Assembly (NCBI GenBank): GCA_043819495.1
Contig: JBDRET010000024.1
Location: 7,177 to 71,176 of the forward strand
Direction: 5' to 3'
Origin: Candidatus Woesearchaeota archaeon
GTDB taxonomy: Archaea; Nanobdellota; Nanobdellia; Woesearchaeales; UBA11576
Length of the DNA: 64,000 bases
This document shows, in pieces, positions 10,700-43,186 of the stretch (position 1 is its first letter; each line of letters starts with the position of its first letter). Below the pieces are notes generated by a model, which saw only the letters and a program-made list of their open reading frames with translations, was not told where the DNA came from and made no database searches. A program made the translations under genes and the position numbers.

Positions 10700-11386
10700 G
10701 TGTTTGAAATGCCAGCCCCCACAAACAATGTTTTCAATAGTGTTGCAGCACAGTATCTGCAGAAAGACAGCGCATTCTATTCTAATGTGTCAAAAGCACA
10801 TGATATCTTATGTAAGGTCAGGAATCAGTCAGATGGACACGGCATAACATTTGTAGTGAGACGTAATGAGTATATGCCAAGTCTTGACCGTCGCCTCAGG
10901 AACGCAAAGCAGTATAACGAAGAATCACACCTGCTTGATGATCAGGATATAGTCGAAGTAGTTGCAGACCACCGTGAGGTCGACCTTGCGACCATAGTCA
11001 ATAATGAGGGTCAGATAACCGCTGCGAGCGTATACCTGCCTGCGGATGATCTCATGTATCAGGATAAGTATGGGATCCAATGCGACATCTCAACCTTCCT
11101 CGGTTATGCTCCGGATGAGGATGGTGCAGGTGGACGGGCGATAAGCTCTCTCTGTGCGTCAGATATGTTCAATGGTGACGTCGCCATATTGACACTTGGC
11201 GAGACATCGCCTACTGGGAAGAAAGGTGAGATAAACCTGTATTTCCAAGGTGATAGGCTGTATAACAGTAAAGGGAGAGCTGTACGTTGGGACCTTGCAG
11301 ATCCTTTGAGGTTACCTAAGACGCGGAGACAGTTGTACAGTATTCCTTACTTGAGTGAGAGCACCATTGCGCTCACTCCGTTTTAG
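10700..11386 (+). CDS. Hypothetical protein with a divergent DisA_N/DAC-like (diadenylate cyclase) domain
   Basis: Aligns by eye to the CdaA DAC core. 'IVNNEGQITAASVYLPADD' matches 'IIQGxxIAAAASYLPLSD', and 'GGRAISSLCASDMFNGDVAILTLGETSPTG' matches '[29 protein letters not shown]'. The catalytic DGA and RHR motifs are replaced by DLA and GGRA. Confidence 0.35.
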   Translation: MFEMPAPTNNVFNSVAAQYLQKDSAFYSNVSKAHDILCKVRNQSDGHGITFVVRRNEYMPSLDRRLRNAKQYNEESHLLDDQDIVEVVADHREVDLATIVNNEGQITAASVYLPADDLMYQDKYGIQCDISTFLGYAPDEDGAGGRAISSLCASDMFNGDVAILTLGETSPTGKKGEINLYFQGDRLYNSKGRAVRWDLADPLRLPKTRRQLYSIPYLSESTIALTPF

Positions 11387-11462
11387 GCATCGTCACTTTA
11401 TGCTGAACTGCATCAGCTTTTTCTTCTATTTTTTTTCAGCTCGCTAGGCAGTGGTGCTCTCA
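11356..11462 (+). repeat. Hairpin element family 1, copy A (107 nt)
   Basis: Terminal inverted repeat tgagagcacca / tggtgctctca, with internal 'ttgcgctcac ... aactgca ... cagctcgctaggcag'. It overlaps the last codons of the 10700-11386 ORF. Confidence 0.6.
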
Positions 11463-11535
11463 TTTATACAGTAATTCGGGTAGGTGTGTGGATCAGAACA
11501 TAATCTTTATAAGAAAACACTTCATCTTTGGGGTT

Positions 11536-12774
11536 ATGAGCATGAAGAAAGAGCTTGAGGCAGTCGTTGAGCAGATACGGCCTTCCGATAAGAAACTCCT
11601 TAAAGAAGTCAATGATTTCATCAAGAAGCTCAATGCAGAACTCAAGGTAAAAGGCATACGCGCAAAGACAGTCATGGGTGGGTCTATAGCTAAAGATACC
11701 TACCTGAAAGGTGACCATGATTGCGACCTATTTGTCAGGTTCCATAAGAGCTATGCTGACAAAGACATATCAAAACTTCTTGGAGCAGTACTAAAACCAT
11801 TCAGACCTGTCAAAGTACACGGAAGCAGAGATTATTATCATATAAAGAACGGTATCAATTATGAGATTGTCCCGGTACTCGAGATAACTGATGCAAAAGA
11901 TGCAGTGAATGTCACTGACATGAGCCCTATGCATGTCACCTGGGTGAAAGACCATCCTGGGTTGACTGATGAGATACGTCTCGCAAAACAGTTCTGCAAA
12001 GCAAGCGGAGTATATGGTGCAGAATCTTACATCAAAGGATTTTCCGGTCATGTTCTTGATATATTGGTCATACAGTACGGCGGTTTTGTCAATTTCCTGA
12101 AGGCAACTCAGAAATGGAAAGACAAGGAAGTGATAGACCCTGAGAAGCATTACAAAAAAGATGCGCTCCAAAAGCTAAACAGGTCAAAGATAGACAGTCC
12201 AATAATAGTCATAGATCCAGTATGTCCTGAAAGGAATGCTGCTGCTGCATTATCCGGAGAGAAACTAGATATGCTCAAAGCTGCTGCTGCAAAGTTCCTC
12301 AAGGAACCATCAAAGGATCTATTCGTCGTGCGTGAGAAGAGCACTGTTGACATAAAGACCGGCGCAGGCAAGAACAAGACAATAATGCTTGAGGTCACTG
12401 CGTTCCGCGGAAAAGAGGATGTTGTCGGTGCGAAATTGCTCAAGGCATTCCAGCAGATCCACAACCAGCTCAGGTTCTATGATTTTGAGGTCATCGATGC
12501 AGGATGGAAATGGAACAAGAAGGAGAAAGCGCTCTTCTGGTATGTGCTTGACCCAAAAGACCTGATCCAGATAAAGAAATGGATCGGACCTCCTCTGCGC
12601 GAGACAGAACGGATAAAGAATTTTGAGAGCAAGCACGGAAATACATTCGTCGAGGATGGCAGGGTATGCACTTACGTTAAGCGTAAGTATGTGAATGCAG
12701 AAGCGCTGATAGATGATATAATCAAGGATGATGAGCATCTATATGAAAAGGTGAAGAGGGTGGTCCGTAAATGA
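11536..12774 (+). CDS. cca: Archaeal CCA-adding enzyme (class I tRNA nucleotidyltransferase)
   Basis: 'GGSIAKDTYLKGDHDCDLFVRF' is the class-I polymerase-beta-like motif. Length ~412 aa. The track's start at 11488 is trimmed to the MSMKK Met. Confidence 0.85.
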   Translation: MSMKKELEAVVEQIRPSDKKLLKEVNDFIKKLNAELKVKGIRAKTVMGGSIAKDTYLKGDHDCDLFVRFHKSYADKDISKLLGAVLKPFRPVKVHGSRDYYHIKNGINYEIVPVLEITDAKDAVNVTDMSPMHVTWVKDHPGLTDEIRLAKQFCKASGVYGAESYIKGFSGHVLDILVIQYGGFVNFLKATQKWKDKEVIDPEKHYKKDALQKLNRSKIDSPIIVIDPVCPERNAAAALSGEKLDMLKAAAAKFLKEPSKDLFVVREKSTVDIKTGAGKNKTIMLEVTAFRGKEDVVGAKLLKAFQQIHNQLRFYDFEVIDAGWKWNKKEKALFWYVLDPKDLIQIKKWIGPPLRETERIKNFESKHGNTFVEDGRVCTYVKRKYVNAEALIDDIIKDDEHLYEKVKRVVRK

Positions 12775-13511
12775 AAGCGATAATACTTGCAGCAGGGTAT
12801 GCGACAAGGCTATATCCTTTGACATTGAATACCCCAAAACCACTGATTGAAGTGGGCCGGAAGAAGATGGTCGAGCACATCCTGCATAAGCTTGAGGAGC
12901 TTGATGGGCTTGATGAAGTGCATATAGTCACAAACTCAAAATTCTATCAACATTTTGTCGACTGGAGAAGAAGTTTCCCAAGTACGGTCAACATAAAGAT
13001 ACATGATGACGGTACTAAGACCAATGAAGACCGGCTCGGAGCTGTCGGTGATATACATTTTGTCGTACAGAAAGAGAAGATGGCAGATGATGTGGTGATA
13101 GTCGGCGGGGATAACCTGTTTGACTTCAGTCTCTTGGGCATGCGATCATTGTTTGACTCCAGGAAAGGGCCGGTGGTCGCTGCGCGCGATCTTGGTGATC
13201 CTGCAAAGCTTGCGAAAAAGTTTGGCACCATGGAGATTGATTCTTCCAATAAAGTGATCAGTTTTGAGGAGAAACCAGAAAAACCAAGATCATCTCTTGC
13301 TGCAACCTGCGTGTACATGTACACAAAGGAAGACATAGAAGAGCTTGAGCGACATGTCGAGAAAGAGGGCCTGCCAGATAATACTGGTGATTTTGTCAAG
13401 CATCTGATGAGCGTGCGTGATGTGTTCGCATATCCTTTCGAGGAGCACTGGTATGACATCGGCAGCCATGAGCAGCTCGAAGAGGCAAACTTGATATTCA
13501 AGGACAGGTAA
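12771..13511 (+). CDS. Sugar-phosphate nucleotidyltransferase (glucose-1-P thymidylyl/uridylyltransferase family)
   Basis: N-terminal 'MKAIILAAGYATRLYPLTLNTPKPL' matches the NTP-transferase GxGTRL motif. The start overlaps the cca stop (ATGA), suggesting an operon. Confidence 0.7.
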   Translation: MKAIILAAGYATRLYPLTLNTPKPLIEVGRKKMVEHILHKLEELDGLDEVHIVTNSKFYQHFVDWRRSFPSTVNIKIHDDGTKTNEDRLGAVGDIHFVVQKEKMADDVVIVGGDNLFDFSLLGMRSLFDSRKGPVVAARDLGDPAKLAKKFGTMEIDSSNKVISFEEKPEKPRSSLAATCVYMYTKEDIEELERHVEKEGLPDNTGDFVKHLMSVRDVFAYPFEEHWYDIGSHEQLEEANLIFKDR

Positions 13512-13709
13512 TTCTCTGTATTTTGCTGAGGAGTGTATTGAAGATAGGTAATGATATCCTATCATGATGATTTCATATTCCTAACAATACTATTTCTGAG
13601 GAGCCTGATTTTCATGTTCTGGTAAAAAAGTTGCGCGGCGCATGGCTTTCCGATATATAAACTTTCTCAGAAAAGGTATATAAGCGAGCAGCGCGTCAGA
13701 ATCTGGACA

Positions 13710-14741
13710 ATGAAACTCGCAGAACAACTACGGCAAGAATTCCTCGACCATGGGAGAGGATTCGAGAACATAATAGGACAGGACCCTGTCAAACAGCAGG
13801 TAAAGTCAGCACTCATCGCAGGAAGGCATATACTGATAGTAGGTCCTCCAGGGATAGGGAAGACAACTCTTGCAAAGAGCATCGCAGGACTGCTGCCTGA
13901 GACTGAGGTCAAGAACTGCCCTTACAACTGCCTGCCTGAAAGGCCTGTGTGCCCTGAATGCAAGACGGGTAGGACAGATGGAACAAAGATAGTCGCAGGT
14001 CTTGATTTTTTTGTAAGGGTACAGGGAAGCCCCGACCTTACTGCTGAAGATCTTATAGGTGATATCGATCCTGCAAAAGCGATGGAACACGGACCGCTCA
14101 GTATTGAAGCATTCACTCCAGGAAAGATATTCAAGGCAAACAATGGCGTGCTGTTCTTTGATGAGCTCAACAGGGCTCCGGAGAAACTCCAGAATGCACT
14201 GCTTCAGGCATTGCAGGAGAGGACAGTTACGATCGGCAGCTATGACGTTGACCTTGAGGCAAATTTCATATTCATAGCGACCATGAATCCTGATGATTCA
14301 AGTACAGAACCCCTCTCTGATGTCCTTCTTGACCGTTTTGATGTTGCATACATGGTATATCCTGAGAGCATCGAGAATGAGGTACGCATAGTAGAAGAGA
14401 ACTCCCAGCATTTTCTTGAGTTCCCTGAAAATGTACGCAATCTCACAGTGCTTTTTGTCAGGCTCCTGCGTGAGAGCGACAAGCTTGAGAAGCTTCCTAG
14501 TGTCAGGGCGTCAATAGGATTGTATGAACGGGCGCAGACAAATGCCCTGGTGAAAGGCAAACAAAAAGTAGAATGGCAAGATGTACAGGATGTTCTAGTG
14601 TCCGTGCTCAGCCATAGGATAAAACTCAAGCCATCTTCACAATATCTGCAGACCCCGCAGGAACTCATAAAGGAACAGCTCTCAAAGTTTGTGGAACAGC
14701 ACGGGATCCAGAGAGAAGCCGAAGAGGGTGATGTTCCCTAG
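13710..14741 (+). CDS. MoxR/magnesium-chelatase-like AAA+ ATPase with a zinc-ribbon insertion
   Basis: Walker A 'GPPGIGKTT', Walker B 'VLFFDELNRA', sensor 'ATMNPDD', and an inserted 'CPYNCLPERPVCPECKTG' zinc ribbon. Confidence 0.7.
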   Translation: MKLAEQLRQEFLDHGRGFENIIGQDPVKQQVKSALIAGRHILIVGPPGIGKTTLAKSIAGLLPETEVKNCPYNCLPERPVCPECKTGRTDGTKIVAGLDFFVRVQGSPDLTAEDLIGDIDPAKAMEHGPLSIEAFTPGKIFKANNGVLFFDELNRAPEKLQNALLQALQERTVTIGSYDVDLEANFIFIATMNPDDSSTEPLSDVLLDRFDVAYMVYPESIENEVRIVEENSQHFLEFPENVRNLTVLFVRLLRESDKLEKLPSVRASIGLYERAQTNALVKGKQKVEWQDVQDVLVSVLSHRIKLKPSSQYLQTPQELIKEQLSKFVEQHGIQREAEEGDVP

Positions 14742-15942
14742 TAGTGCTGAGGCAAAAGATAAGGATACTGTAAAACTCGATATCTCAAGCCTTACACCTC
14801 TACAGGAGATGGATGGCAAGCTTAAGCTTGACAATGTAGATGACAAGCTCATGCACTCTGTTCTTGAGAATGACCAGGAAGTCATAGATGAAGGTATGGT
14901 GATAGAAGAAGCCATAAACAGGGGAATAGGATCATTTAGCCCTGACATGATGTTCGAGAAGCTCGTCAAGAATTATACAATGGCAAAGAGCATCTTTGGA
15001 GAGGCTCTGATCAGAGCAATCTCAGGATACGATCCTGAATATCTGGACAAAAATATAGGCATACCTGAATTCCAAAGAGAGCTCAAGAAAAGGATCGAGG
15101 AAAAACTGGACAGATTCAAGAAAGATGGGATAATAGACAAACAGGGCATAATCACTGACAAAGGGATAGAACTCGCATCACTCATAATGTGCATCCAAGA
15201 GCTTGACAATATCGTACCCAAAGGGATATCTGGCGAGAGAGTGCACAAGAGACATTCTATATATGGCGGAAAGAGTGATGTGCGCAACTATAGGAAAGGT
15301 GACCGGTATCGTGATATCGCTGTCAAGATGTCTGCCAAGACTGCGATACGCAGAGGACATCACGAGATAGGTATGGGGGATCTCAAGACATACGAACGGC
15401 AGAGTAAGGGCGAAGTGTATCTCATCTATGCACTTGATGCTAGCGGAAGCATGAAAGGAGATAAGATAGGGGTGTGCAAGAAAGCAGGTGTTGCACTTGC
15501 GTATCGTGCTATCCAGGAGAAAGATAGGGTCGGGCTCATAGTTTTTGGCACAGATGTGAAAGAAGCGATACCACCGACAACAGATTTTTCATTATTGCTC
15601 AATTCCATAACACGAGTAAAAGCATCAGCAGAGACTGACATGGCAGCCACCATCAGAAGGGCTGTCGAACTTTTCCCCAATACTGATGTGACCAAGCATC
15701 TTCTTGTACTCAGTGATGCGCTGCCGACAAAAGGTGATGATCCAGAGAAAGAGACACTTGAAGCTGCAGCAGTCGCAAGGGCTGCAGGAGTGACAATATC
15801 ATTGATAGGAATAGACTTGGATGCCAAGGGCAAGAAGCTTGCAGAGAAACTTGTGGAACTCGGGAACGGGAAGCTCTATGTGGTCAAGGACCTGAAAGAT
15901 ATAGACAAGATAGTGCTTGAGGATTATTATAGTGTGATGTGA
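14731..15942 (+). CDS. von Willebrand factor A (vWA) domain protein partnered with the preceding AAA+ ATPase
   Basis: MIDAS-like 'YALDASGSMKGDK', then 'LIVFGTD' and 'LVLSDALPTKGDD'. The start overlaps the ATPase stop. This is the classic MoxR-vWA (ChlI/ChlD-like) pair. Confidence 0.65.
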   Translation: MFPSSAEAKDKDTVKLDISSLTPLQEMDGKLKLDNVDDKLMHSVLENDQEVIDEGMVIEEAINRGIGSFSPDMMFEKLVKNYTMAKSIFGEALIRAISGYDPEYLDKNIGIPEFQRELKKRIEEKLDRFKKDGIIDKQGIITDKGIELASLIMCIQELDNIVPKGISGERVHKRHSIYGGKSDVRNYRKGDRYRDIAVKMSAKTAIRRGHHEIGMGDLKTYERQSKGEVYLIYALDASGSMKGDKIGVCKKAGVALAYRAIQEKDRVGLIVFGTDVKEAIPPTTDFSLLLNSITRVKASAETDMAATIRRAVELFPNTDVTKHLLVLSDALPTKGDDPEKETLEAAAVARAAGVTISLIGIDLDAKGKKLAEKLVELGNGKLYVVKDLKDIDKIVLEDYYSVM

Positions 15943-15955
15943 GTCAGGTGTGATA

Positions 15956-19355: not shown

Positions 19356-21218
19356 ATGTCAAGATACGCAGGCATAACTATCATTCTTGTATTTCTGCTC
19401 TGTTTAAGTTCTGTATCTTTGACTGCTCTTGCACCAATACCTGATGTCGGACCGAGCGGATGCGTGCCTGCACCAGGGATGCCGTGCGGTTCGACAAGCG
19501 GAAGCAGCGGAACAAAGACAACAACCCAGCAGGCGACGCAGACAAAAACAACAACACCGCAGACTGGCGGATATACTGCAACAAAGCCGGATGAAGGAGA
19601 GAGGACAACCGATACAGGAATACCGCAGCATGTCGAGATAGCCATCAAGAATTATAAGAATCCTGGATGGGGAATTGTATACGATGTCTACACAGGAGAA
19701 CTTCCAGATGATCAAGCATGCCCTCCTGTCGATATAATGGATTGTTATAACCAATGCGGTGATCGTAAATATGGTGATTGTTTAGATCCCTGCGAGGAAT
19801 GGTATGAGCCTTTAGCAAAACAGTGGCAAGAGTGCTATGCTGCTTGGAACGCCAGACACAACCAGTTGATGGAAGCATATCTTATGCAAGAAAATCAGGG
19901 CTATGTGTGCTATGGGGATGATTGCTCTGATGAAGAAGAGATTGATGTTCCAGACGATCTAAAAGACTCTGTCTCAGATAACAAACGTGGCGCGTCATCT
20001 CCCATGGCTCAGCTTGTAGCGCAAATAATACTGCTGACAGATGAAGCAATGACTCCGGGGCAGACAAGAGACTTCACAGCACTTCTTGATCTGCTGAACA
20101 AGGCAGCGACCTCAAAGACAATGAGTGATGCAGAGCTTGAACATTTCATAGGTTCTCTGCAGAAATACCTTGCAGGAAGGATACCTTTTGTTACGGGTAC
20201 TGAAGATTACACTGCACTGACTTCTGCGATGGTCTCGCTTGGCGTGGCAATAGATGAGGCCAAAGCAAGAGGCAATACGCAACTTGTCAACAGGCTGCAG
20301 TCAGACTTTGAAAAAGCAGTGAATGACGTCATAATCACGATAGAAAAAAACAAGCTGGAGAAGGGCAGTCAACTTACAAAAGAACAGATAGGATGGGCCG
20401 ACAATGTGATAGATGGCATGACTCAGGGAGCGAAACAGATGAGGAACCTTGGCCAGAATGCCAATGCCGACAAGGCCCAGAAGCTGGCAAGTGATCTCAA
20501 AGGGGCTTTAGATACATCAGTCGGTAATGTGATGGATACCACAGAAGTGCAGCTTGATCTTGATGACTCAAAACAAAGGACAATCATAGAAGAGATGGAA
20601 CGCAAGCAGTCAAAACCGAGCGTGAACAAGAAGTACATAAACCAGAAACTCGATGAGGCCCGCGTAAGGGTGCAGGAGATGCTCGAAGCAAATTACAGGA
20701 AAACGATGACACTCGAGGAGTTTGAAGCAAAGAATGCTGATTACCAGGCAAGCAGGGATGCAGCAGTGAACATATTCAAGGAGGTCCTGAGCCAGGACAA
20801 AGGTAACACAGAAGCCAATTTTGCGCTTGGGACAATATACAGGAAAGAAAACAGGAAAGAAGACGCAAAAGAACTATATGAACGCGCAATACTGGGAGCA
20901 AGCCCTCAAGACAGGCAAATACTGATCAATGGAATGAAAGATCCTGAACTTACAGCACGGGTCCTGGAAGGAGCAGGATTGGCACAACTCCCAAATAAGG
21001 GCAAAGTCATGAATCACGTAAGGACTGATACAATAAATGAGAATGCCTATGCAGACAAAGCAAAAGAGGAACTGGCATACTTCACCACAAAGATAAGCAA
21101 AGGCCTTGCTATACTTGGAGACAATCCTTTCAGTAATGCCTATGGCACAGTCAAAGGACTGTTTGTAGAGCAGAGAGATAACGCGAATGTAAATGAGGTA
21201 GCGTATGGCACGCCATAA
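19356..21218 (+). CDS. Large secreted protein: signal peptide, Thr/Gln-rich linker, Cys-rich module, then a long helical/TPR-like region
   Basis: Signal peptide 'ITIILVFLLCLSSVSLTALA', then 'TKTTTQQATQTKTTTPQTGGYTATKP', then 10 Cys in ~120 aa, then a TPR-like 'NFALGTIYRKENRKEDAKELYERAILG'. Confidence 0.5.
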   Translation: MSRYAGITIILVFLLCLSSVSLTALAPIPDVGPSGCVPAPGMPCGSTSGSSGTKTTTQQATQTKTTTPQTGGYTATKPDEGERTTDTGIPQHVEIAIKNYKNPGWGIVYDVYTGELPDDQACPPVDIMDCYNQCGDRKYGDCLDPCEEWYEPLAKQWQECYAAWNARHNQLMEAYLMQENQGYVCYGDDCSDEEEIDVPDDLKDSVSDNKRGASSPMAQLVAQIILLTDEAMTPGQTRDFTALLDLLNKAATSKTMSDAELEHFIGSLQKYLAGRIPFVTGTEDYTALTSAMVSLGVAIDEAKARGNTQLVNRLQSDFEKAVNDVIITIEKNKLEKGSQLTKEQIGWADNVIDGMTQGAKQMRNLGQNANADKAQKLASDLKGALDTSVGNVMDTTEVQLDLDDSKQRTIIEEMERKQSKPSVNKKYINQKLDEARVRVQEMLEANYRKTMTLEEFEAKNADYQASRDAAVNIFKEVLSQDKGNTEANFALGTIYRKENRKEDAKELYERAILGASPQDRQILINGMKDPELTARVLEGAGLAQLPNKGKVMNHVRTDTINENAYADKAKEELAYFTTKISKGLAILGDNPFSNAYGTVKGLFVEQRDNANVNEVAYGTP

Positions 21219-21726
21219 AACTGAATCGCACAAGCAGGAACAGCATAAGCAGGAATTGCATAAGAAGGAACAGCATAAGCAGGAATCGCATGAGCAGGAA
21301 ATTGCTCCTGAGAAGCCCAAGCGCAAGATACATTTGGGGTTGCTCATATTAGGGCTATTTATCATATTCGTAGGGTGCACAATCATCGGTTATTTCGGTG
21401 GAACAGTCAAACTAGGCACATGCCAGAACGAGATTTGCTTCATCAATGCATCAGACCAGTGCCTGGTGGCAGACCTCAGATTGCAGGAAGACTTTGGCAT
21501 AGTGAAATATCACTCAGAAAACTGCACATTCCAGAAGACCATAGAACAGGTGACAGACCCTGATTCACAGGACCTGAAGCCTGTGCTTGAAGGCAAGACC
21601 ATGAACTGCACATATGAGAAAGACGATTTTGACGCGCAATGGGTATACTCACTCACTTCAGGAATTGAGAAGTGCGAGGGGGAACTCGTGACAACTATCG
21701 CGCAGCTGATTCTTCTAGCTGAATAG
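21205..21726 (+). CDS. Membrane-anchored Cys-containing extracytoplasmic protein with N-terminal HKQE repeats
   Basis: N-terminal tandem 'QHKQE(L/S)HK' repeats (15-nt DNA repeats at ~21225-21300), then a TM helix, then a Cys-rich domain. It overlaps the upstream gene by 14 nt. Confidence 0.5.
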   Translation: MARHKTESHKQEQHKQELHKKEQHKQESHEQEIAPEKPKRKIHLGLLILGLFIIFVGCTIIGYFGGTVKLGTCQNEICFINASDQCLVADLRLQEDFGIVKYHSENCTFQKTIEQVTDPDSQDLKPVLEGKTMNCTYEKDDFDAQWVYSLTSGIEKCEGELVTTIAQLILLAE

Positions 21727-21867
21727 GGGTAAAGTAAGTTAATGGTGTTAAGTGGGATGCAGCGCTCGCACAGCTTCTTTAATCGCTTCTATCTGCCCAA
21801 CTGCAATACTTACCGCTTATGTCCCCACAGCTCGCTAGGCGGCATCCCACTTAATCTTATTTTACCC
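21727..21867 (+). repeat. Hairpin element family 1, copy B (141 nt), flanked by 9-bp direct repeats
   Basis: Long imperfect terminal IR 'gggtaaagtaagttaa..ttaagtgggatgc / gcatcccacttaatcttattttaccc'. Core 'agcgctcgc ... aactgca ... cagctcgctaggcgg'. Direct repeat 'ctgaatagg' at 21719-21727 and 21867-21875. Confidence 0.6.
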
Positions 21868-21912
21868 TGAATAGGCAAAATATAAAAACCACAAGTCTTG
21901 TGCTTGTCTTTT

Positions 21913-24034: not shown

Positions 24035-25801
24035 GTGCGATACAAGGGGTGTGACAGTTTGACAGAAGATATAGTGAACGATATTCTAGATTCAGAGGGA
24101 AATCTCAAACCGGGATTCAGTGGTATAGGTAAGCTAAGAGGCAAGACAGATTATACAAAAGATGAGGAGACAGTACTAAAGCATTTCTTCACCAATACGC
24201 ACTCAAATGTGTACTGCGCTACAGATAACATGCCAGGAGAGCTATGGGCATTGATAATGGGCCAGTATGCACGGAGCAGCATGACCGGAAGAGATAGGCT
24301 GCTCAAGCTGTTCACTGACATGGAAGAGAAAGGTGAAGCGATATCAGTATCCGAGCTAGCAGAGATGATACGATCTGGACGCGATGTCGCAGGAGCACTT
24401 CAAGCATACCTCAATAAAGCAGGGAATTTCATCGAGATATATGGTGTGAAGTACGGCCATGCATCACTACGAGATTCAGGTGTAATCAGAATATGTTTCG
24501 AAGGGGTGAGCCAGAGAGCCACCAAGTTCCTTGAGAGCGCCAGAGAGGGGGCATATCAGGAACAGTCTACCCGTGCCATCCCTTATGAGATGGAGAATCT
24601 TGGCGTCCCATATGAGATCCGTGACACCAAGTATGAGATCATCATACATGAGCTGGATGAGAAGCTCATCGAACTATACAATAAGATATACAATAAGCTG
24701 ATAGTATACCTGCCTAGTAAGTTTGCTCATCTCAGGGCCAAGGCCGATGAGAAGCTGGCTTCTGAGCTTGGCCGTGATGACGTGACGATAACTGACAGGG
24801 AGTGGAGCAGTATCATAGCTGCAAAGGCATTCGATGTCGCGAGATACCTGCTGCCTCAGAACATGACAACATCTTTAGGCATCACATTGAACACCCGAAG
24901 GTTCCAGGACAAGCTCACTGAATGGCAGTCCTCAGACATCATGGAGATGCAGGTGCTTGGAAAGGTGGCTCAGGTCGAGTCCATGAAGATAAGCCCTACG
25001 CTCATGAAGTACGGCAACAAGAGCCCGTATCATGTGAAGATACCTTCTGCACTTAAGGCGCTCAATAAGAAATTTGTAGTCAACAACAAGGCCTGTGCAG
25101 CTTTCCCTTACACACATTATGATGTCAGCTCAAAGATGATATCTGCCCCTGACGACCTGCAGGAACTGGTCCTTGCAAGCATACTGCTCAATGGTTCAGA
25201 TGGCAGTGTGAGCATGGATGAATTCAAGCAGATTGTAGGGAACATGTCATTTGATGAGAAACGTGAGGTCGCTGAGAGCGTAGCGTCAGATAAACCGTCT
25301 CATGACATATTCTCCAAGACGATGGAATGCGGATCAGTCATCTTTGAGAGAGTCTATGATATAGGTGCATTCAGGGACCTTCAGAGACAGAGAGGGGATA
25401 GGCAGCAATTCAACAGATATTCAGTCATAGGTTACAACATGCCTAAAGAGGTCGCAGAGATCGGTTTAAAGGCTGAGTTTGTCACTCTTATGAATGAAGT
25501 CAAGAATGTATATGATATGATGTGTGAAGAGGGTATCGCTGCGGCAGAGTATGTGCCTGTGATGGCAAATGTCCTGCGACACGTCGTCACAAAAGATCCT
25601 GTCCAGTGTTTCTATGAGGCGAAACTTAGAGCGCAGCCTGCAGGCATCGATTCTTACAGATCAATAGCTCAGCAGGAGATAACCCAACTTCTTGATGTGA
25701 TGCCTGTCTTCAAAGGTCTGGTACCCTACGATGCAGAATATTATAATCTTGGCAGGCTCGAAGAGACAGTCAATGGCAAGCTGAGGAAGCATAAGAAATA
25801 A
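24035..25801 (+). CDS. ThyX-like (flavin-dependent thymidylate synthase family) protein, tandem duplication of the ThyX domain with non-canonical RHR motifs
   Basis: First domain: 'GHASLRDSGVIRICFEG...FLESAREGAYQEQSTRA' aligns to ThyX 'GHETPFEHIVFTFHV...WFRHRIASYNELSGRY', and 'ARYLLPQNMTTSLGITLNTRRFQDKL' matches ThyX 'ARxvLPxNxxTxxxxTxNxRxLxxFL'. Second domain: 'AFRDLQRQRGDRQQFNRYS' and 'YVPVMANVLRHVVTKDPVQCFYEAKLR'. Confidence 0.45.
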   Translation: MRYKGCDSLTEDIVNDILDSEGNLKPGFSGIGKLRGKTDYTKDEETVLKHFFTNTHSNVYCATDNMPGELWALIMGQYARSSMTGRDRLLKLFTDMEEKGEAISVSELAEMIRSGRDVAGALQAYLNKAGNFIEIYGVKYGHASLRDSGVIRICFEGVSQRATKFLESAREGAYQEQSTRAIPYEMENLGVPYEIRDTKYEIIIHELDEKLIELYNKIYNKLIVYLPSKFAHLRAKADEKLASELGRDDVTITDREWSSIIAAKAFDVARYLLPQNMTTSLGITLNTRRFQDKLTEWQSSDIMEMQVLGKVAQVESMKISPTLMKYGNKSPYHVKIPSALKALNKKFVVNNKACAAFPYTHYDVSSKMISAPDDLQELVLASILLNGSDGSVSMDEFKQIVGNMSFDEKREVAESVASDKPSHDIFSKTMECGSVIFERVYDIGAFRDLQRQRGDRQQFNRYSVIGYNMPKEVAEIGLKAEFVTLMNEVKNVYDMMCEEGIAAAEYVPVMANVLRHVVTKDPVQCFYEAKLRAQPAGIDSYRSIAQQEITQLLDVMPVFKGLVPYDAEYYNLGRLEETVNGKLRKHKK

Positions 25802-25811
25802 TATTTTTATC

Positions 25812-33003: not shown

Positions 33004-33246
33004 TCAAGAGAATTGTATGACTTTCTCTCTTGACCTGGCACCTGCCTTGAGTTCACATCTTTTTCCTGTCTGCCTCTTCAAGAATTTGAGGAGTTCAGTG
33101 TTCGCTTTGTCCTTGTCAGGGACTGCTGCGACGGCGATACGCAGCATCTGTTTGTTCTCATCCCAACCTATGACTTCTGTTTTTGGAGCGTTGGGTTTGA
33201 CTACTACTTTTAGGATGTTGTTGTTGATATGATTGGTGATGTCCAT
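33004..33246 (-). CDS. DUF167/YggU-family small protein
   Basis: 'LRIAVAAVPDKDKANTELLKFLKRQTGKRCELKAGARSREKV' matches the UPF0235 pattern. Confidence 0.5.
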   Translation of the reverse strand: MDITNHINNNILKVVVKPNAPKTEVIGWDENKQMLRIAVAAVPDKDKANTELLKFLKRQTGKRCELKAGARSREKVIQFS

Positions 33247-33255
33247 CTTTTACAC

Positions 33256-33359
33256 GTCAGCACCGCAGCGCTCGCTTTGCGTATTCTTTTGAATATTCAT
33301 GCACAACTGCATCTTTAATCGTATATATCATTGTCAGCTCGCTAGGCGGCGGTGCTGAC
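33256..33359 (+). repeat. Hairpin element family 1, copy C (104 nt)
   Basis: Terminal IR gtcagcaccgc / gcggtgctgac. Core 'agcgctcgc ... aactgca..ctttaatcg ... cagctcgctaggcgg'. Confidence 0.6.
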
Positions 33360-33392
33360 TTTGTAAGTGGAACTTGCGTTGCTGTTTGACTA

Positions 33393-33710
33393 TCAGTCGT
33401 AATCACGCCAGGTGTGCCTACATTTGGTACATCTCAGGAACTTAGTCATCGCTTCATCTGCAGAACGGGTCTGGATGAGCCAATAGTATGCGCCATTATT
33501 GCCGCATTTTGGACAATCTTCTTTTGCGATCGGAAGGGTCTCAAAATCCTGTTCAACGACCTCTATTTCTGCAGTCGCTTTGACGGTCTCCTTCAGAGAA
33601 CCTGCATTGCTCCCTTCGCTTGTATAACCACATGAGCAGTGCAAGACAACCTTATCACCTTCTTTCTGTGGCCTGAGTATCGATTTGCATTTTGGACAGA
33701 ATTGTATCAT
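33393..33710 (-). CDS. tfs: Transcription factor S / RNA polymerase subunit M
   Basis: N-terminal Zn ribbon 'CPKCKS...CSCG' and C-terminal TFIIS-type ribbon 'CPKCGNNGAYYWLIQTRSADEAMTKFLRCTKCRHTW'. Confidence 0.8.
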   Translation of the reverse strand: MIQFCPKCKSILRPQKEGDKVVLHCSCGYTSEGSNAGSLKETVKATAEIEVVEQDFETLPIAKEDCPKCGNNGAYYWLIQTRSADEAMTKFLRCTKCRHTWRDYD

Positions 33711-33726
33711 CTTTGAAACCCCTAAC

Positions 33727-34353
33727 TTATAGCACACCTATGATCTGCATGAGCCTGACAAAACTTATCTTTATGTAACCTACCCAAGGTATCCGTACCA
33801 CTGCTTTTCCGATGTAGTTCTGCTCCATTATGCCAGTCTCAAATGCGAATGATGCAGGGTTATTATCTCCTTTTGTGGTGAACAGTCTTCCTTTCTCACC
33901 ATCTTCTATGATTATTATCCTGTGGATTATCGGATCAGGCCTTCCCGCATTGAATACTATCACGTCACCCACATTGAGCAGTGAGGGGTCAGTCCGGTAT
34001 AGGATCATTATATCTCCTTTATTGAAACCATTGCTGAACCTGAATTCCTGGAAGTTCTCTTTTGTGTACCCCAGAGCAAAATAGAACCTTCCCTGAGTGC
34101 AGTCGTATCTCTGCTCACAGTTCGCTTTCTGCTGCCACCAATACTCAAAGCCTCCATCATGCTCCATAGAGCTTGAGACCACTGCAACAATAGGGTGTGT
34201 TGTGGCGAGAACAAGACCCAGCGTTGGGTAGACTACAAACTTTATAAGTACAAATGCGAGTATTACGTTCACGAACCAGCTTGCCCAGCTGTCATCTTCC
34301 CAAATGAAATACCATACCTGCTTCCATGTATTCTTGGCCTTTTTCCAGTCCAT
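33727..34353 (-). CDS. Archaeal signal peptidase I (SEC11-like)
   Basis: 'IVAVVSSSMEH' carries the catalytic Ser. 'GDVIVFNAGRPDPIIHRIIII' and 'TKGDNNP' are present. The start is trimmed to MDWKK. Confidence 0.65.
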   Translation of the reverse strand: MDWKKAKNTWKQVWYFIWEDDSWASWFVNVILAFVLIKFVVYPTLGLVLATTHPIVAVVSSSMEHDGGFEYWWQQKANCEQRYDCTQGRFYFALGYTKENFQEFRFSNGFNKGDIMILYRTDPSLLNVGDVIVFNAGRPDPIIHRIIIIEDGEKGRLFTTKGDNNPASFAFETGIMEQNYIGKAVVRIPWVGYIKISFVRLMQIIGVL

Positions 34354-37791: not shown

Positions 37792-37956
37792 TATATTAAC
37801 AATCGTTTCAAGGGGTTGCGAACTGCAGACCTGTGAGAATATTTTTTAATCCCCACCATAGAAGAAGTATAGCAAGTGTGAGCAAGACATAATTCCAGAT
37901 GTCTTTAATATCAAAATTCAGATACCATTTCAGGAATTCCGTGACTTTTCCCAATT

Positions 37957-38187
37957 TTACCTCTTCTTCTGCTTCTTTAGCTGCATCTCTTTAGGGTGAT
38001 GTATAGTCTCATCTGCAATCTTCACTTTTTTCGTACGGAGCAGCCGTTTTAGGAATGACTCTTCTTTCTTCAGCACAGTATCTTCTTTGTCCAATTCAGG
38101 AAGCTTTGAAAGTTCTTTATCTTCCTGTTTCAGATGATCTATCTTCCGCTTATCGGGTCGTGTCATTTTTTCTCCTCGATAGTTCAT
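37957..38187 (-). CDS. Small Lys-rich hypothetical protein
   Basis: ORF only. Low complexity. Confidence 0.25.
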   Translation of the reverse strand: MNYRGEKMTRPDKRKIDHLKQEDKELSKLPELDKEDTVLKKEESFLKRLLRTKKVKIADETIHHPKEMQLKKQKKR

Positions 38188-38196
38188 ATGTCCTGT

Positions 38197-38541
38197 TCAT
38201 AACATCGGCAGCTTTCCTGTCACCTTATCTATAGCATCTTCGTTATCAGGGCCGATACCGACACAGGTCTTTGTCCCTGGAGCTATACAGGTCTTGCCGG
38301 CATCAGTTATGACTGCTGCGACAAGTTTTTCTGTCTTTGCCTGATTGACATAGCTGAGCATAGTTTTCTCATCCGGGACTTTCAGCACAATCTTCTTCTG
38401 ACCTTGAGAACGCCATTCATCAATTTTAGAACTGGATGATTTCAGAGTCGCTTCGACTGCTGCGTGCGCTACCTGAGCTGCAAGCTTACCTTTAGGTAAC
38501 TTAAGATCTTGCCTTACCAGAATGACCAGTTTCATATCCAT
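38197..38541 (-). CDS. pth2: Peptidyl-tRNA hydrolase, archaeal/eukaryotic type
   Basis: 'MKLVILVRQDLKLPKGKLAAQVAHAA' is the PTH2 signature. Confidence 0.8.
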   Translation of the reverse strand: MDMKLVILVRQDLKLPKGKLAAQVAHAAVEATLKSSSSKIDEWRSQGQKKIVLKVPDEKTMLSYVNQAKTEKLVAAVITDAGKTCIAPGTKTCVGIGPDNEDAIDKVTGKLPML

Positions 38542-38612
38542 CGATTAACAACCTCTGATACAACAGATAATGTGATATTATACTACAATATCTTACAACA
38601 TCTGATGACCCT

Positions 38613-39695
38613 TTAAAAACTAAGCAAGCTTTTAAAAGTTTGGTTTTTCGGGGTGTACTTCGGCTTGTTCAGTGACTGCATCTCTTTTACAATATCAAGA
38701 TGCTCTATGCCTATCTTACCAACATAAAGGTCATTGATAGAACCTCCTTCTGCAAGATACTTCTTCACCTTAAGATACCCATCTATGTAGACATAGTCTT
38801 TCTGGCAGCCTCCAGGTCTTGATGTATCTGCGATGCCGCGTTTGACCCTTGTGGTTATCCTGAATGCTGTCGATGGCTGGAAGAACTGAAGAAGATACTT
38901 ATATATCTCTGAGAAGCTCTTAGTGAGTGCCATCTGGACAGCGACTGCTCTTGCGGCATAATTCTTGATATTCTCATTATTCAACAGTCCGAATCGCTCT
39001 TCATTGACTACTGCAAGTCCCTCTTCTGTAGCGAGATAATCAGGGAATCCGTGGAAGAACATCATGAATGGCTGTTCCCTGCCGTTCTCAGCGCGAAGGA
39101 CATGAGTACCTATCTCGTGTATCACCAGCCTTTTGATGAAATTGTCTGAGAACATGAAATTATCTTTGATGAATATCTTTTTTTTTGATACCAACACTGC
39201 AGCGCTTGCGCTCATGTTCTTTGTATCGACATCATAACCGAAACCGTAATGGTTGACTTCTGCCTGTATCCTATGCTTAGCAGTGATTGGATCTATGGTC
39301 TTTGCTTCTTTCTCGCATTCAAGTGTGAGAAGGTTTGCGGAATGATCAAGGGCTTCATTTGAGGGAGTCCCATACACTTTACGAGAGAACACTGTGAATT
39401 TCTTTGATCCTCTATTGTTCAACATCTCGCACTTGTCTATGAAAAGGTTACGTTTCCTGCTCAAGAGCTCTCCAAAAGCAGAATCATGATCATCTATAGA
39501 ATTCAGCCTGGACTGTACTGCATCATAATCAAAATCAAGCTCAGGGTATATGAAATACGGGTCATAATCAGGATCCGCAAGCACTTTAATCTTTTCAGAT
39601 TCGTTGTTTATCGGATTTATCTCGAAAAAGCTGACTGGATTGATCACTTGCTGTAGACTTGCATCTATGTTCTTGAGTTTGAAAAAATCTGCCAT
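38613..39695 (-). CDS. DUF1704-family putative zinc metallopeptidase (HExxH plus QEGLA-type motif), paralog 1
   Basis: 'HEIGTH' and 'TEEGLAVV'. Confidence 0.5.
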   Translation of the reverse strand: MADFFKLKNIDASLQQVINPVSFFEINPINNESEKIKVLADPDYDPYFIYPELDFDYDAVQSRLNSIDDHDSAFGELLSRKRNLFIDKCEMLNNRGSKKFTVFSRKVYGTPSNEALDHSANLLTLECEKEAKTIDPITAKHRIQAEVNHYGFGYDVDTKNMSASAAVLVSKKKIFIKDNFMFSDNFIKRLVIHEIGTHVLRAENGREQPFMMFFHGFPDYLATEEGLAVVNEERFGLLNNENIKNYAARAVAVQMALTKSFSEIYKYLLQFFQPSTAFRITTRVKRGIADTSRPGGCQKDYVYIDGYLKVKKYLAEGGSINDLYVGKIGIEHLDIVKEMQSLNKPKYTPKNQTFKSLLSF

Positions 39696-39798
39696 CGTCC
39701 CTGAAATTATCCGCTTTCTTCAATATATAAACTTGTTGTTTTATTCTCCTCGAGAGTAGGGACAAAAGTTTAAATAGCGTATAACCCAGTTCCAAAGT

Positions 39799-40740
39799 AT
39801 GATAGATATATATTACAGGCCTGAAAATCGGGTGGTTCAGGGCAAACTCAAGAACCTGAAATCACGGAAGACTGTCTGGGTAGATTGTTTTAACCCTTCG
39901 AAGCAGGAGATTGATGATGTCTGTGCTATTGCAGGGATTCCCAAGCAAGAGTTCAAGGAACATCTTCTTGGATACGAACGTCCAACAACACTTGAGACAG
40001 AGGATTATTCTCTAGTCGTATTCGGTGCACCTATACAGCGAGGCAATACCCGCGTAAGTTCTCTAGCGTTATTCATATGCAAGAACCAGACTGTTGTAAC
40101 ACTCAGGACTGCAGAGATAGACGCTCTGGCAAGGGTCAAGCGCGAGATGCTTGATAAGAACCCAAAGTATCTTGATTCTTCTACTGCATTATTACAGATC
40201 ATCCTTGAAAGGATAATAAGCAGCTATTTTGAACATATGGAGCGATTCCAGGAGCATACGGATCATATAGAGGCAATAGTGTTCAAGGCTCCTCAGAAAG
40301 AAGCAGTCGAAGAGACCTTCAAGATCCGTAAATCAGTGCTCCTTTTCCAGAAAGCGCTGGTGGCAAACAAGGAAGCGATACTTTCAATAGAAAAAGGCAA
40401 TCTTAGCAGACTTTCAAAGAAAGATGTTGTTGATTTCAGGGATATACGAGAAGATGTTATGCAGCTGATAGATTCCGGTGATACCCAAAGGATAATTCTT
40501 ACAGGAGTGCTTGACATCTATACCTCTTCAGTGTCAAACCAGATGAGTGAAGTCATAAAGAAGCTGACAGTCGTCGCATCTTATGTTCTCATCCCTACGC
40601 TCATAGCAAGCATCTATGGCATGAACTTCAAGAACATGCCTGAACTGTCCTGGCAGTGGGGATACCCTTTCTCAATGGGAGTCATGGCGCTTTCCATATT
40701 CTCGGTATGGTATTATTTCAGGAAGTCAAAGATGATATGA
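39799..40740 (+). CDS. corA: CorA-family magnesium transporter
   Basis: 'YGMNFKNMPEL' (GMN motif) followed by two C-terminal TM helices. Confidence 0.8.
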   Translation: MIDIYYRPENRVVQGKLKNLKSRKTVWVDCFNPSKQEIDDVCAIAGIPKQEFKEHLLGYERPTTLETEDYSLVVFGAPIQRGNTRVSSLALFICKNQTVVTLRTAEIDALARVKREMLDKNPKYLDSSTALLQIILERIISSYFEHMERFQEHTDHIEAIVFKAPQKEAVEETFKIRKSVLLFQKALVANKEAILSIEKGNLSRLSKKDVVDFRDIREDVMQLIDSGDTQRIILTGVLDIYTSSVSNQMSEVIKKLTVVASYVLIPTLIASIYGMNFKNMPELSWQWGYPFSMGVMALSIFSVWYYFRKSKMI

Positions 40741-41115
40741 GTTTTTGTGTCAAATGCATTTTCTTCAGTTATTTGAGTTACTGATAGAGTGAAAAAGCCG
40801 ATGACGCCAATATTCAGTCATTCTATGTGCTGAAATTAATCACATAAAATAATCAATAAATAATGAACCCCTTCGGGGAAATTTCTAATTTACGTCCTAG
40901 AGCGTGCGTGGCGCTTGCAAACTTATTTGTAAGCTCAATAATTCCGATAAGTTTGTGAGTGTAACGAGCAAGCGAATTAGGTCTTAGTTGAGTGATCAGA
41001 GCTGAAAAGCTTGAGTTGGCTTTTTATTTCGATATCAGACAAAACCTTTATATTGTACTGTGGTGCTCCATATACTGACGACTTGCTGTTGTAGGGCAGG
41101 TCAGGAGGTAATAAG

Positions 41116-43008
41116 ATGGTAATAGTTAAGTTCCCTGATGGGGCAACCAAGGAATACACTGTTGGTACCACGGGCCTACAGATTGCTGAAGATATCTCTT
41201 CAGAACTTGCTTCTCAAGCAGTCGCGATGAAGCTCAATGATAAGGTTGTAGAGTTATCTACGCCAGTGGTCGAAGATTCTGAAGTGAAGATAATGACACC
41301 AAAAGACCCTGAAGGAATGGACGTCTTTAGGCACAGTACAGCACACCTTCTCGCGCACGCAGTAACTGAACTTTATCCTTATGCAAAACTTACTATAGGT
41401 CCTGTTGTCCAGGAAGGATTCTATTATGACATAGATCATGAGCCGTTCCAGCCTGCTGACATGAAGAAAATCGAGCAGAAGATGCATGAGATCATGAAGC
41501 AGAAGCAGCCGATAATCCGACATGAATTATCAAAGAATGATGCTCTTGAGCTGTTCAAGGATAATGAGTTTAAGGTTGAGATGATCAATGATCTTGAAGA
41601 TGGGACACTTACAGTATATCGACAGGGAAGTTTTGTCGACTTGTGTAGAGGACCACATGTCAGGCATACAGGGATGATAAAAGCATTCAAGCTCACGAAG
41701 ATTGCAGGTGCGTATTGGAGAGCCGATGCAAAGAACAAGCAGCTCCAGAGGATATACGGTATAAGCTTCCCTACAAAAGAAGAGCTGAAAGAATACTTGA
41801 GACTTCTTGAAGAGGCAGAGAAACGCGATCACAGGAAGATAGGGAAGAAGCTTGACCTGTTCAGTTTCCATGAAGAGGCTCCAGGAATGGCATTCATGCA
41901 TGCAAAAGGTATGGTCATGTGGAATGAGCTTATGAAATTCTGGCGTGAAAAGCATTCTAAAGCAGGATATGTCGAGACGAGGACACCAATAATGCTCAAT
42001 AAGTCTCTTTGGGAGACTAGCGGGCATTGGGATAACTATCGGGAGAACATGTACATCACTAAGGTCGATGAAGTAGAGTATGCGATAAAACCTATGAACT
42101 GTCCTGGCGGCATGTTGCTATACAAAGAAAAAGTGCATTCTTATCGTGAGTTCCCATTGAAAGTCGCTGAGATCGGTCTTGTACATAGGCATGAACTCAG
42201 CGGGGTAATCGGTGGGATGCTGCGAGTAAGAGAGTTTCATCAAGATGATGCGCATATATTCATGACAGAGTCCCAGATTGTCCAAGAAGTACTTGGTGTA
42301 ATCAATCTGTGTGAAGAGATGTATTCTGTGTTTGGGCTGGAATATAATCTGGAGCTTTCTACAAGGCCTGAGAAATCAATAGGCACAGATGAACAATGGG
42401 AGAAAGCGACAGAAGGTCTGAGAAAAGCGCTTGAAGAAAAAGGAAAGGAGTATGTCCTCAATGAAGGTGATGGTGCTTTTTATGGTCCGAAAATTGATTT
42501 CCATCTTAAGGATGCTCTAGGAAGGACGTGGCAATGCGCAACAATACAGCTGGATATGTCTTTGCCAGAAAGATTCGACTTGAATTATGAGGGAGAAGAT
42601 GGCAAGAAACATAGGCCGGTAATGATACATAGGACAGTATATGGTGGAATCGAAAGGTTCTTAGGAGTGCTTATCGAGCATTATGCAGGAAAGTTCCCTC
42701 TCTGGCTCAGCCCAGTACAGGTTCGCGTGCTTACTGTGGCAGACAGGCATGATGGATATGCAGAAGATATCCGCAAGAGATTCTTTGATGCAGGTATACG
42801 GGCAGAGCTTGACTCACGTTCTGAATCTATATCTAAGAAGGTGAGAGAAGCGCAGATACAGCAGGTGAACTACATCCTGGTCATAGGCGATACTGAATTG
42901 GAGAATGGGACTGTGAATGTCCGGACTCGTGATAATATTGTACATGGTGAGAAGAAGCCTGAAGAGTTCATGGATTCTGTGCTTGGTGAGATAAAAGGAA
43001 GAAAGTAA
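41116..43008 (+). CDS. thrS: Threonyl-tRNA synthetase
   Basis: N-terminal TGS domain, class II motifs 'FRHSTAHLLAHA' and 'HRTVYGGIERFLG', and a C-terminal anticodon-binding domain. 630 aa. Confidence 0.9.
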   Translation: MVIVKFPDGATKEYTVGTTGLQIAEDISSELASQAVAMKLNDKVVELSTPVVEDSEVKIMTPKDPEGMDVFRHSTAHLLAHAVTELYPYAKLTIGPVVQEGFYYDIDHEPFQPADMKKIEQKMHEIMKQKQPIIRHELSKNDALELFKDNEFKVEMINDLEDGTLTVYRQGSFVDLCRGPHVRHTGMIKAFKLTKIAGAYWRADAKNKQLQRIYGISFPTKEELKEYLRLLEEAEKRDHRKIGKKLDLFSFHEEAPGMAFMHAKGMVMWNELMKFWREKHSKAGYVETRTPIMLNKSLWETSGHWDNYRENMYITKVDEVEYAIKPMNCPGGMLLYKEKVHSYREFPLKVAEIGLVHRHELSGVIGGMLRVREFHQDDAHIFMTESQIVQEVLGVINLCEEMYSVFGLEYNLELSTRPEKSIGTDEQWEKATEGLRKALEEKGKEYVLNEGDGAFYGPKIDFHLKDALGRTWQCATIQLDMSLPERFDLNYEGEDGKKHRPVMIHRTVYGGIERFLGVLIEHYAGKFPLWLSPVQVRVLTVADRHDGYAEDIRKRFFDAGIRAELDSRSESISKKVREAQIQQVNYILVIGDTELENGTVNVRTRDNIVHGEKKPEEFMDSVLGEIKGRK

Positions 43009-43045
43009 AATATTTAAATATTTTTTTCACCTTTTTTTGATTCTT

Positions 43046-43186
43046 ATCTGTGAAGTCTTTCTCTACTCCAACGCAGCGCTTGTTTTGCATATCATCTCTA
43101 TTCAGTCAGCCCTACTGCGATATCTATCGCTCAAGTCATCGTAAACTCGCTAGGCAGCGTTGGCGTCTGTATCGACTTCACAGATT
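43046..43186 (+). repeat. Hairpin element family 1, copy D (141 nt)
   Basis: Terminal IR atctgtgaagtc / gacttcacagat plus an inner ccaacgc / gcgttgg pair. Core 'agcgct ... ctactgcga ... aactcgctaggcag'. Confidence 0.55.

Follow-up and report, generated by a model that had tools for sequence, protein, structure and literature searches.

A probably mobile family of intergenic hairpin elements with a conserved folded core and freely varying complementary ends in Woesearchaeota-type archaea

The 64,000-nt stretch of DNA analysed here (the window) is part of contig JBDRET010000024.1 in the Candidatus Woesearchaeota archaeon assembly GCA_043819495.1, and its genes include those for an archaeal TFS/RPB9-type factor, an archaeal CCA-adding enzyme, SRP54 with a LAGLIDADG intein, threonyl-tRNA synthetase (ThrRS), serine hydroxymethyltransferase (SHMT) and a wyosine-synthesis enzyme. 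The closest relatives of the encoded ThrRS, at 76-79% identity, belong to 'Candidatus Woesearchaeota' and 'Nanoarchaeota' genome bins, and the host is a Woesearchaeota-like DPANN archaeon. Scattered among the genes are four copies (c1 to c4) of a short hairpin element, which an original prediction made from the letters of the window had described as sharing left and right motifs while carrying inverted repeats specific to each copy. The c3 copy lies between the TFS gene (33393-33737, minus strand) and a DUF167 gene (33004-33246, minus strand), and c4 lies between the converging ThrRS gene (41116-43008, plus strand) and an open reading frame (ORF) of 514 amino acids (43185-44729, minus strand).

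When the window was scanned with the pattern GCGCT-N(50-80)-CTCGCTAGGC, exactly four matches were obtained, all on the plus strand and coinciding with the cores given in Table 1, against 0 expected in shuffled sequence. The internal spacing agreed in all four copies, with GCGCT-N33-ACTGC followed by 26-28 nt to CTCGCTAGGC, and the full right-hand box was found nowhere else in the window. A covariance model searched with its filters off gave the same four copies at 70-88 bits and no other or weaker ones. The copies are thus located where they had been predicted, and shared motifs with copy-specific inverted repeats were seen at all four sites, with a left box that deviates in c1 and c4 and a right box that deviates in c4 as well. 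Some details had to be amended. The string 'ctttaatcg', which the original prediction had taken as a shared internal motif, was found in just two of the copies, and its position differs between them. The arms, which it had called completely different, are indeed specific to each copy but compositionally related: AGCACC is common to c1 and c3, and a (RCC)n/(GGY)n pattern runs through the arms of the whole family. The c2 copy, assigned to 21727-21867, was rightly located but spans 21728-21866 when its outer stems are included. Each window copy has a long closing stem, and the fold z-scores ranged from -2.1 to -5.8 relative to shuffles. The load amounts to one element per ~10-16 kb, or ~60 per Mb and ~1% of the DNA.

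The four elements share a single orientation, and their centres (11409, 21801, 33307 and 43116) are separated by gaps of 10.4, 11.5 and 9.8 kb. Gaps so even among four random points have a post hoc probability of ~0.0055. The even spacing of ~10 kb was not kept in the syntenic relative L109, which has only one copy over the same stretch. On other contigs, copies likewise tended toward a shared orientation.

The consensus fold obtained with RNAalifold begins with the arm helix, which is followed by a G-C and a C-G pair, a CUA bulge, a second G-C and C-G pair, a tandem G.A/A.G mismatch and three more pairs. It is formed on the strand reading GCCTAGCGAG, which is the minus strand of the window, and its helices enclose an open, purine-rich loop of ~60 nt. 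The minus-strand consensus can be written as 5'-(RCC)n arm-GC-[CUA]-GC-GA-GCU-~27 nt-GCAGU UGGGC-~33 nt-AGC-GA-GC-GC-(GGY)n arm-3'. Its conserved core consists of two GCGAGC boxes ~70 nt apart, the CUA bulge and an invariant GCAGU at fixed spacing. Positions outside the search pattern, namely GCG before AGCGC and U and GC around GCAGU, were at least 90% conserved. The arms, in contrast, drift freely in sequence and keep their complementarity.

The pairing was evaluated across 126 distinct copies. In these, 94.1% of cells were paired compared to 75.6% in shuffles and 21-64% with slid partners, and double-sided changes were seen in 360 cells compared to 102 in shuffles; the alignment had been fitted to the model, which somewhat inflates the pairing, although the arms lie outside the pattern by which the copies were collected. 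Of the 15 pairs, 13 had changed on both sides, the core included (G-C to A-U 8, G-C to C-G 4 and C-G to U-A 9). An unbiased scan of all column pairs returned covariation in the arms only. Compensatory arm changes were also seen between genomes, as when AAGTGGGATGCC/...ATCCCACTT of c2 is compared to AAGTGTCATGCC/...ATGACACTT of set A in the JAHJSS01 bin. The proposal that a conserved core with covarying stems marks a true family was therefore borne out by the paired fraction and by the double-sided changes.

The strand on which the elements had been written out in the original prediction is the opposite of the one that folds best. On the minus strand, G.U pairs outnumbered A.C mismatches by 41 to 14 (p = 4e-4), with one of the 14 A.C mismatches located in c1. 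The tandem G.A exists only on the minus strand, its counterpart on the other strand being C.U/U.C. The minus strand also folds more stably, the mean difference being -1.1 kcal/mol (p = 1e-8) when DNA parameters are used and -0.9 kcal/mol for RNA parameters. Based on these three differences, the minus strand of the window was taken as the folding strand.

The interior of ~60 nt consists of 38% A and 24% G, and the lengths of its two segments are constrained (33 ± 1 and 27 ± 2 nt) while their sequence is variable. No conserved pairing within the interior was found by averaged pair probabilities on both strands or by the all-pairs covariation scan. A CUGAC/GUUGG pairing and a small YGC-AGUUGG-GCR interior hairpin were considered and dropped, as they were not consistent between subfamilies. 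The elements do not code for protein: no frame was consistently open in six-frame translations of the four window copies or in open-frame statistics for 100 copies. Only 3 of 100 copies lay inside a long ORF, and the copies were concentrated near gene 3' ends.

Species-representative genomes were then scanned with the spaced pattern, which gave at least 107 loci. Among the matches listed, ~96 came from some eight Woesearchaeota/Nanoarchaeota bins, and the others were scattered single chance matches in bacteria. An alignment of 98 copies was turned into the covariance model R1, and a search of 733 kb of DNA from those loci, representing ~8 related genome bins, found 128 copies. The original prediction had named the lack of further copies as an argument against itself; more than 120 further copies are present in related archaeal bins. 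The size of the elements ranges from ~105 to 190 bp. The model picked up variants that the pattern had missed, such as copies with ACC...GCGAGCGU ends and a 'B' type that reads GCCUAGCGACC...AAGUUAGCUCGA...GGGAGCGC. Another copy found by R1 and missed by the pattern (L076, 4086-4237) carries a 42-nt insertion of two small hairpins exactly inside the conserved GCAGUUGG^GC motif.

A search of Rfam (Rfam 15), also proposed in the original prediction, gave no matching family at gathering thresholds and none on the elements even at E <= 5. A single match to the pattern in IMG/VR was a chance match inside a 1750-aa ORF and did not indicate a phage or virus origin. The literature was searched by sequence and by topic, and no description of the family was found. 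The family is most likely undescribed and so far specific to Woesearchaeota-type DPANN archaea. Three bins that carry the Woesearchaeal element and the common gene order (CAZNGE01, CAZLYC01 and CAZXTQ01) are labelled 'uncultured Methanosarcinales'. The ThrRS of CAZNGE01 is 76% identical to that of the window, and a JGI contig with this ThrRS has the gene order of the window. The label of these three bins is probably wrong.

Signs of mobility came from the JAHJSS01 bin, in which three 100%-identical copies of 132 bp were found on three contigs with unrelated flanks. Exact direct repeats of 9 bp flanked each copy and differed between the three (GATCTTCAG, AACAAATAC and CTCAAGGGC, respectively). 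A second subfamily of the same bin (L001, L088 and L089) has 14-bp outer stems within the repeated unit and duplications of 8-9 bp, and the copies in L079 and L063 have common GTATGTAATAAG termini and 8-bp duplications. In the window, c2 is flanked by an exact 9-mer and the boundaries of c1 were set from a flanking near-duplication (Table 1), and no target duplication was detectable at the flanks of c3 and c4. Across the family, exact flanking 8-mers were present at 11 of 122 copies compared to 2.2 in permuted controls, and flanking 9-mers with at most one mismatch at 33 of 122 compared to 14.8. A target duplication was detectable in only ~15-25% of the copies.

Filled and empty sites were found when orthologous spacers were compared. 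The spacer between the ThrRS gene and the 514-aa ORF measures 176 nt with c4 in the window and is empty, at 18, 28 or 41 nt, in the three relatives L108, L110 and L111; in L109 it holds 100 nt of A/T-rich sequence without the element. Conversely, L066 and L070 carry an element in the spacer behind a VWA gene, which in the window is empty and 13 nt long. Elements occupy the TFS-DUF167 spacer in the window, L109 and L057, and since the arms and interiors of these copies are unrelated, the site looks repeatedly used rather than inherited. Newer copies were also seen inserted at the very tips of resident copies (L089 and L092). At least nine abutting tail-to-tail pairs, 0-8 nt apart, combine a main-type and a diverged-subtype copy, with the 3' ends always facing (Table 1). 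These pairs resemble either composites like the bacterial interspersed mosaic elements (BIMEs) or insertions at the tips of residents. A published census of transposable elements of the miniature inverted-repeat type (MITEs) gave one Woesearchaeal genome 105 MITEs per Mb (PMC11602168), and the density of the present elements in the window is of the same order.

Table 1. Positions of the window copies and their flanking duplications, and of abutting pairs in related loci
Feature	Position	Strand	Details
c1, whole element	window 11345-11466	-	arms 11356-11366 / 11452-11462; core 11369-11449; 70.6 bits
c1, putative left target-site duplication TACAGTATT	window 11336-11344		partner TACAGTAAT at 11467-11475, 8/9 match; boundary approximate
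c2, whole element, 139 bp	window 21728-21866	-	inner arms 21748-21760 / 21842-21854; core 21762-21840; outer inverted repeat GGTAAAGTAAG / CTTATTTTACC; 85.3 bits
c2, left target-site duplication CTGAATAGG	window 21719-21727		exact 9-mer; includes the TAG stop of ORF 21205-21726
c2, right target-site duplication CTGAATAGG	window 21867-21875		exact 9-mer
c3	window 33250-33366	-	arms 33256-33266 / 33349-33359; core 33268-33347; 87.7 bits
c4	window 43046-43185	-	outer arms 43046-43057 / 43174-43185; inner arms 43068-43074 / 43157-43163; core 43076-43155; 77.7 bits
Abutting pair	L029 6098-6321
Abutting pair	L081 1743-1972
Abutting pair	L081 6934-7148
Abutting pair	L048 1787-2002
Abutting pair	L067 7576-7799
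Abutting pair	L056 3975-4200
Abutting pair	L086 2274-2495
Abutting pair	L020 3964-4191
Abutting pair	L036 3077-3299
Abutting pair	L008 894-1113

On balance, the elements probably represent an uncharacterised family of MITE-like, non-autonomous transposons of Woesearchaeota-type DPANN archaea, with target duplications of 8-9 bp, a strand-specific folded core and complementary ends that are free in sequence. A transposase supplied in trans would cut the target with a stagger of 8-9 bp, and the staggered cut would leave short direct duplications that decay with age. The folded single strand, rather than the double-stranded terminal sequence, would be read by the machinery that mobilises the element or at a later point of its life cycle, which would explain why only the complementarity of the arms is preserved. 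Copies may also affect their neighbours, for example by placing a 3' hairpin on read-through transcripts.

This reading can be compared to known MITEs, such as the Correia elements of Neisseria and the archaeal MITEs identified with MITE Tracker (PMC11602168). Those are likewise small and non-coding, with terminal inverted repeats and short target duplications, and they occur in tens of copies per genome, in intergenic positions near gene ends, with insertions that differ between relatives. The present elements, of which 4 were found in the window and 128 in the 733-kb sample, are 105-190 bp long and have no consistently open frame. Exact duplications of 9 bp flank the three identical copies and c2, and other subfamilies have 8 bp. 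The c4 site is empty in four relatives, and the VWA spacer is filled in two and empty in the window. The difference lies in the ends: inverted repeats are present in every copy, but their sequences differ between copies and between subfamilies, and no matching parent was present in the sample. MITE families share terminal repeats that are bound by the transposase, whereas these elements share an internal core and their ends covary. The original prediction had stated that the elements differ from a classic MITE with shared terminal repeats, and the differing termini agree with this. Its wider separation from mobile DNA did not hold, as the youngest copies carry exact 8-9-bp duplications and orthologous sites are filled or empty. 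It had also left a choice between a structured RNA and a DNA element recognised by its core. The second half is preferred because target duplications together with filled and empty orthologous sites mark transposition; an RNA gene would here be one without a promoter at a fixed distance, conserved interior structure or a known family.

Several observations weigh against a MITE-like transposon. Neither the window nor the 733-kb sample yielded an autonomous element or a multi-copy protein or transposase, and no transposase domain was present among 40 window proteins; the search for protein-coding or insertion sequence (IS) relatives suggested in the original prediction returned none in these sequences. 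In the sampled DNA, the search for a parent revealed no longer element that combines matching inverted ends with a duplication. The termini of the best-bounded copies differ (GGTAAAGTNAAG..., GTATGTAATAAG/GTATTTGTTTAG... and RGCTCTGTCCCG...), and tolerance of such differences is not to be expected of a sequence-specific transposase. Within one genome, the arms differ among nearly all copies with complementarity kept. In L078, a copy at ~258-369 is flanked by a 19-nt direct repeat (TGTCAGAATTTCGGTTTTG) and not by one of 8-9 bp, which may reflect a different insertion or duplication event. Finally, ~80% of the copies are without a detectable duplication and yet have intact boxes and paired arms. 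These intact copies point to a constraint on residents or to conversion from arm to arm, and selfish spread alone is insufficient to account for them. A core-less 'solo' hairpin, GCCTAGCGAGCGC, was found only once and was therefore not regarded as a common precursor.

The intact boxes are partly a matter of ascertainment, since the scan by which copies were collected required exact boxes. Nevertheless, something preserves the fold, because most copies have lost their duplications and keep both boxes and pairing, and positions off the pattern are as conserved as described above. The candidates are selection for mobility via a folded single strand, conversion between arms, and a function of the resident copies. 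Transposons that move as a folded single strand, such as IS200/IS605 and the integron attC system, make no target duplication, and we know of no precedent for a folded-strand element that does.

A more specific proposal is tentative, and possible rather than probable. Here, DNA- or RNA-based machinery would recognise the folded core (CUA bulge, tandem G.A and GCAGU) on one strand, process the element at the foot of any complementary stem that surrounds it, and insert it with an 8-9-bp stagger; alternatively, a protein-binding RNA module kept by the host would be spread by MITE-like carriers. If true, ends chosen by structure would constitute a mode of transposition that has not been described for any IS or MITE family. 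So far, the data do not amount to evidence of a new class of system.

An unlikely, though the best surviving, rival to a MITE-like transposon is a structured non-coding RNA or cis-acting RNA module expressed from the minus strand. In such a module the helix with its CUA bulge and tandem G.A would be a platform for a protein (e.g. an L7Ae-like one) and the interior a guide or recognition segment, and mobility would only spread a module whose copies the host keeps for their function. Covariation in both arm and core pairs, together with the excess of G.U over A.C on one strand, suits an RNA, as do invariant nucleotides that lie inside helices and an interior of tight length and variable sequence. 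Boxes and arms remain intact in copies with decayed target duplications, and copies that point the same way as the upstream gene are mildly in excess (58 versus 38 overall, and 30 versus 16 between gene pairs of the same direction). However, Rfam gave no match at the permissive threshold, and inspection revealed no promoter-like motif at a fixed distance, the TATA-like boxes being irregular with several pointing away. Many copies are located 0-30 nt from a stop codon, and divergent genes flank 17 of them. The interior, moreover, is without conserved structure, and in the window the interiors matched other sequence, by complementarity or by shared k-mers, no more than expected by chance. At orthologous sites the copies differ entirely in their arms and interiors, where guide RNAs would be conserved, and close relatives differ in whether a site is filled or empty.

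The resemblance to a kink-turn, as bound by L7Ae and found in archaeal C/D and H/ACA small RNAs (sRNAs), consists of a 3-nt bulge in a helix that also has tandem G.A/A.G pairs, together with an invariant sequence in an otherwise variable, small multi-copy element. A canonical kink-turn, in which tandem sheared G.A pairs directly follow the 3-nt bulge, was rejected because two pairs (G-C and C-G) stand between the CUA bulge and the G.A/A.G pairs and no Rfam match was obtained; this also counts against the protein platform. Other RNA identities were rejected in a similar way. A bulge-helix-bulge would require two 3-nt bulges on opposite strands with a 4-bp helix between them, and here a single bulge is seen, opposite which the other strand is continuously paired. 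The RUGAUGA and CUGA boxes of C/D box sRNAs, ordered C-D'-C'-D, are absent from the consensus on either strand, and no Rfam C/D match fell on the elements. H/ACA RNAs and hammerheads each lacked a defining feature when compared by eye with the consensus fold, in which no ACA boxes were present. A tRNA, a split tRNA and a tRNA intron were rejected because neither ARAGORN (with or without introns) nor Rfam gave a match on the elements and because a perfect hairpin, and not a tRNA, is left when the core is removed.

It is quite improbable that the elements are a retro-mobile structured RNA, an archaeal analogue of short interspersed nuclear elements, in which a hairpin is trimmed at the base of its stem, reverse-transcribed and inserted at a staggered nick. 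Ends would then be set by structure and accompanied by target duplications. This would account for elements whose ends fall at the foot of a long stem, whatever its sequence, for the strand-specific fold and for duplications that include the odd 19-bp case. The duplications are nearly all 8-9 bp and not of variable length, though, and neither an A-rich or templated tail nor, in the sampled DNA, a reverse transcriptase was seen. To our knowledge, no such system is known in archaea.

Repetitive extragenic palindromes (REPs), which occur in BIMEs and are associated with RAYT proteins, and the palindrome-associated transposable elements (PATEs) derived from IS200/IS605 are also abundant extragenic palindromes found near gene 3' ends and often in abutting pairs of opposite orientation, and they are recognised as folded single strands, as proposed for the present elements. 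REPs measure 20-40 nt, have a conserved head tetranucleotide and make no target duplication, in contrast to the 105-190 bp, large open loop and 8-9-bp duplications seen here. Movement of REP/BIME-like or PATE-like palindromes as single-stranded DNA by a Y1 HUH transposase is the least credible account, for although intergenic hairpins in many copies per genome with a 3'-end preference, BIME-reminiscent abutting pairs, a strand-specific fold and shared orientation on a contig all recall it, HUH single-strand transposition makes no target-site duplications, the elements exceed REPs 3-5 times in length and have an open loop of 60 nt and no conserved tetranucleotide at the hairpin foot, and their orientation was uncorrelated with local GC skew in 8-kb flanks. 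Integron attC sites resemble the elements in that the folding of one strand sets the recombination substrate, extrahelical bases are present and the stem sequence is poorly conserved. However, conservation in attC sites falls on the outermost R boxes (GTTRRRY) and the middle is variable, whereas these elements vary on the outside and are conserved inside. The attC sites also lie in cassette arrays without target duplications, and the window copies are ~10 kb apart among housekeeping genes.

Some further features of the window were recorded. The 514-aa ORF that adjoins c4 is without a Pfam domain and contains an internal 53-nt repeat (43465-43517 and 43588-43640) that codes for a Pro/Thr-rich segment and whose sequence (ACCACCACCCCTGCC) is similar to the element arms. 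Near the 3' end of this ORF, a fragment at 43207-43245 carries CTTAGCGAG and cattGCGCTC 20 nt apart, which resemble box fragments and obtained no score from the covariance model. The SRP54 gene (48255-51437, plus strand) encodes 1060 aa owing to an intein with a LAGLIDADG homing-endonuclease domain, and the orthologue in L109 has 467 aa and no intein. A ThyX-like ORF (24035-25801, plus strand) of 588 aa is ~2 times the usual length with the Thy1 domain matched in two stretches, and may reflect a tandem duplication or a further insertion.

Genes for tRNAs were very sparse, with ~5 detected in ~815 kb (the window and loci L001-L111) by ARAGORN with intron detection; for a 1-Mb archaeal genome, ~30 would be expected. 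The single Rfam tRNA in the window lies at 58763-58834 on the minus strand, and the ARAGORN model for it is a tRNA-Lys with a 27-nt intron at 58762-58874. Either most tRNAs have unusual introns or architectures, or the tRNA genes are located elsewhere.

The genomes of DPANN archaea are among the smallest found in cells, and the element load is unexpected for a small genome, in a family common to ~8 related genome bins. The usual rule for MITEs, in which the ends are conserved and the interior is free, is inverted here. Two properties that are normally linked in MITEs are thereby separated, as the terminal sequence varies and the terminal complementarity is conserved together with an internal folded motif. 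The covariance model can be used for repeat masking and for flagging insertion hot spots at gene ends, and the insertions may serve as strain-level markers in metagenomes. For the archaea that carry the family, the pattern suggests that a folded single strand is recognised and could reveal a new transposition chemistry or an archaeal RNA-protein module.

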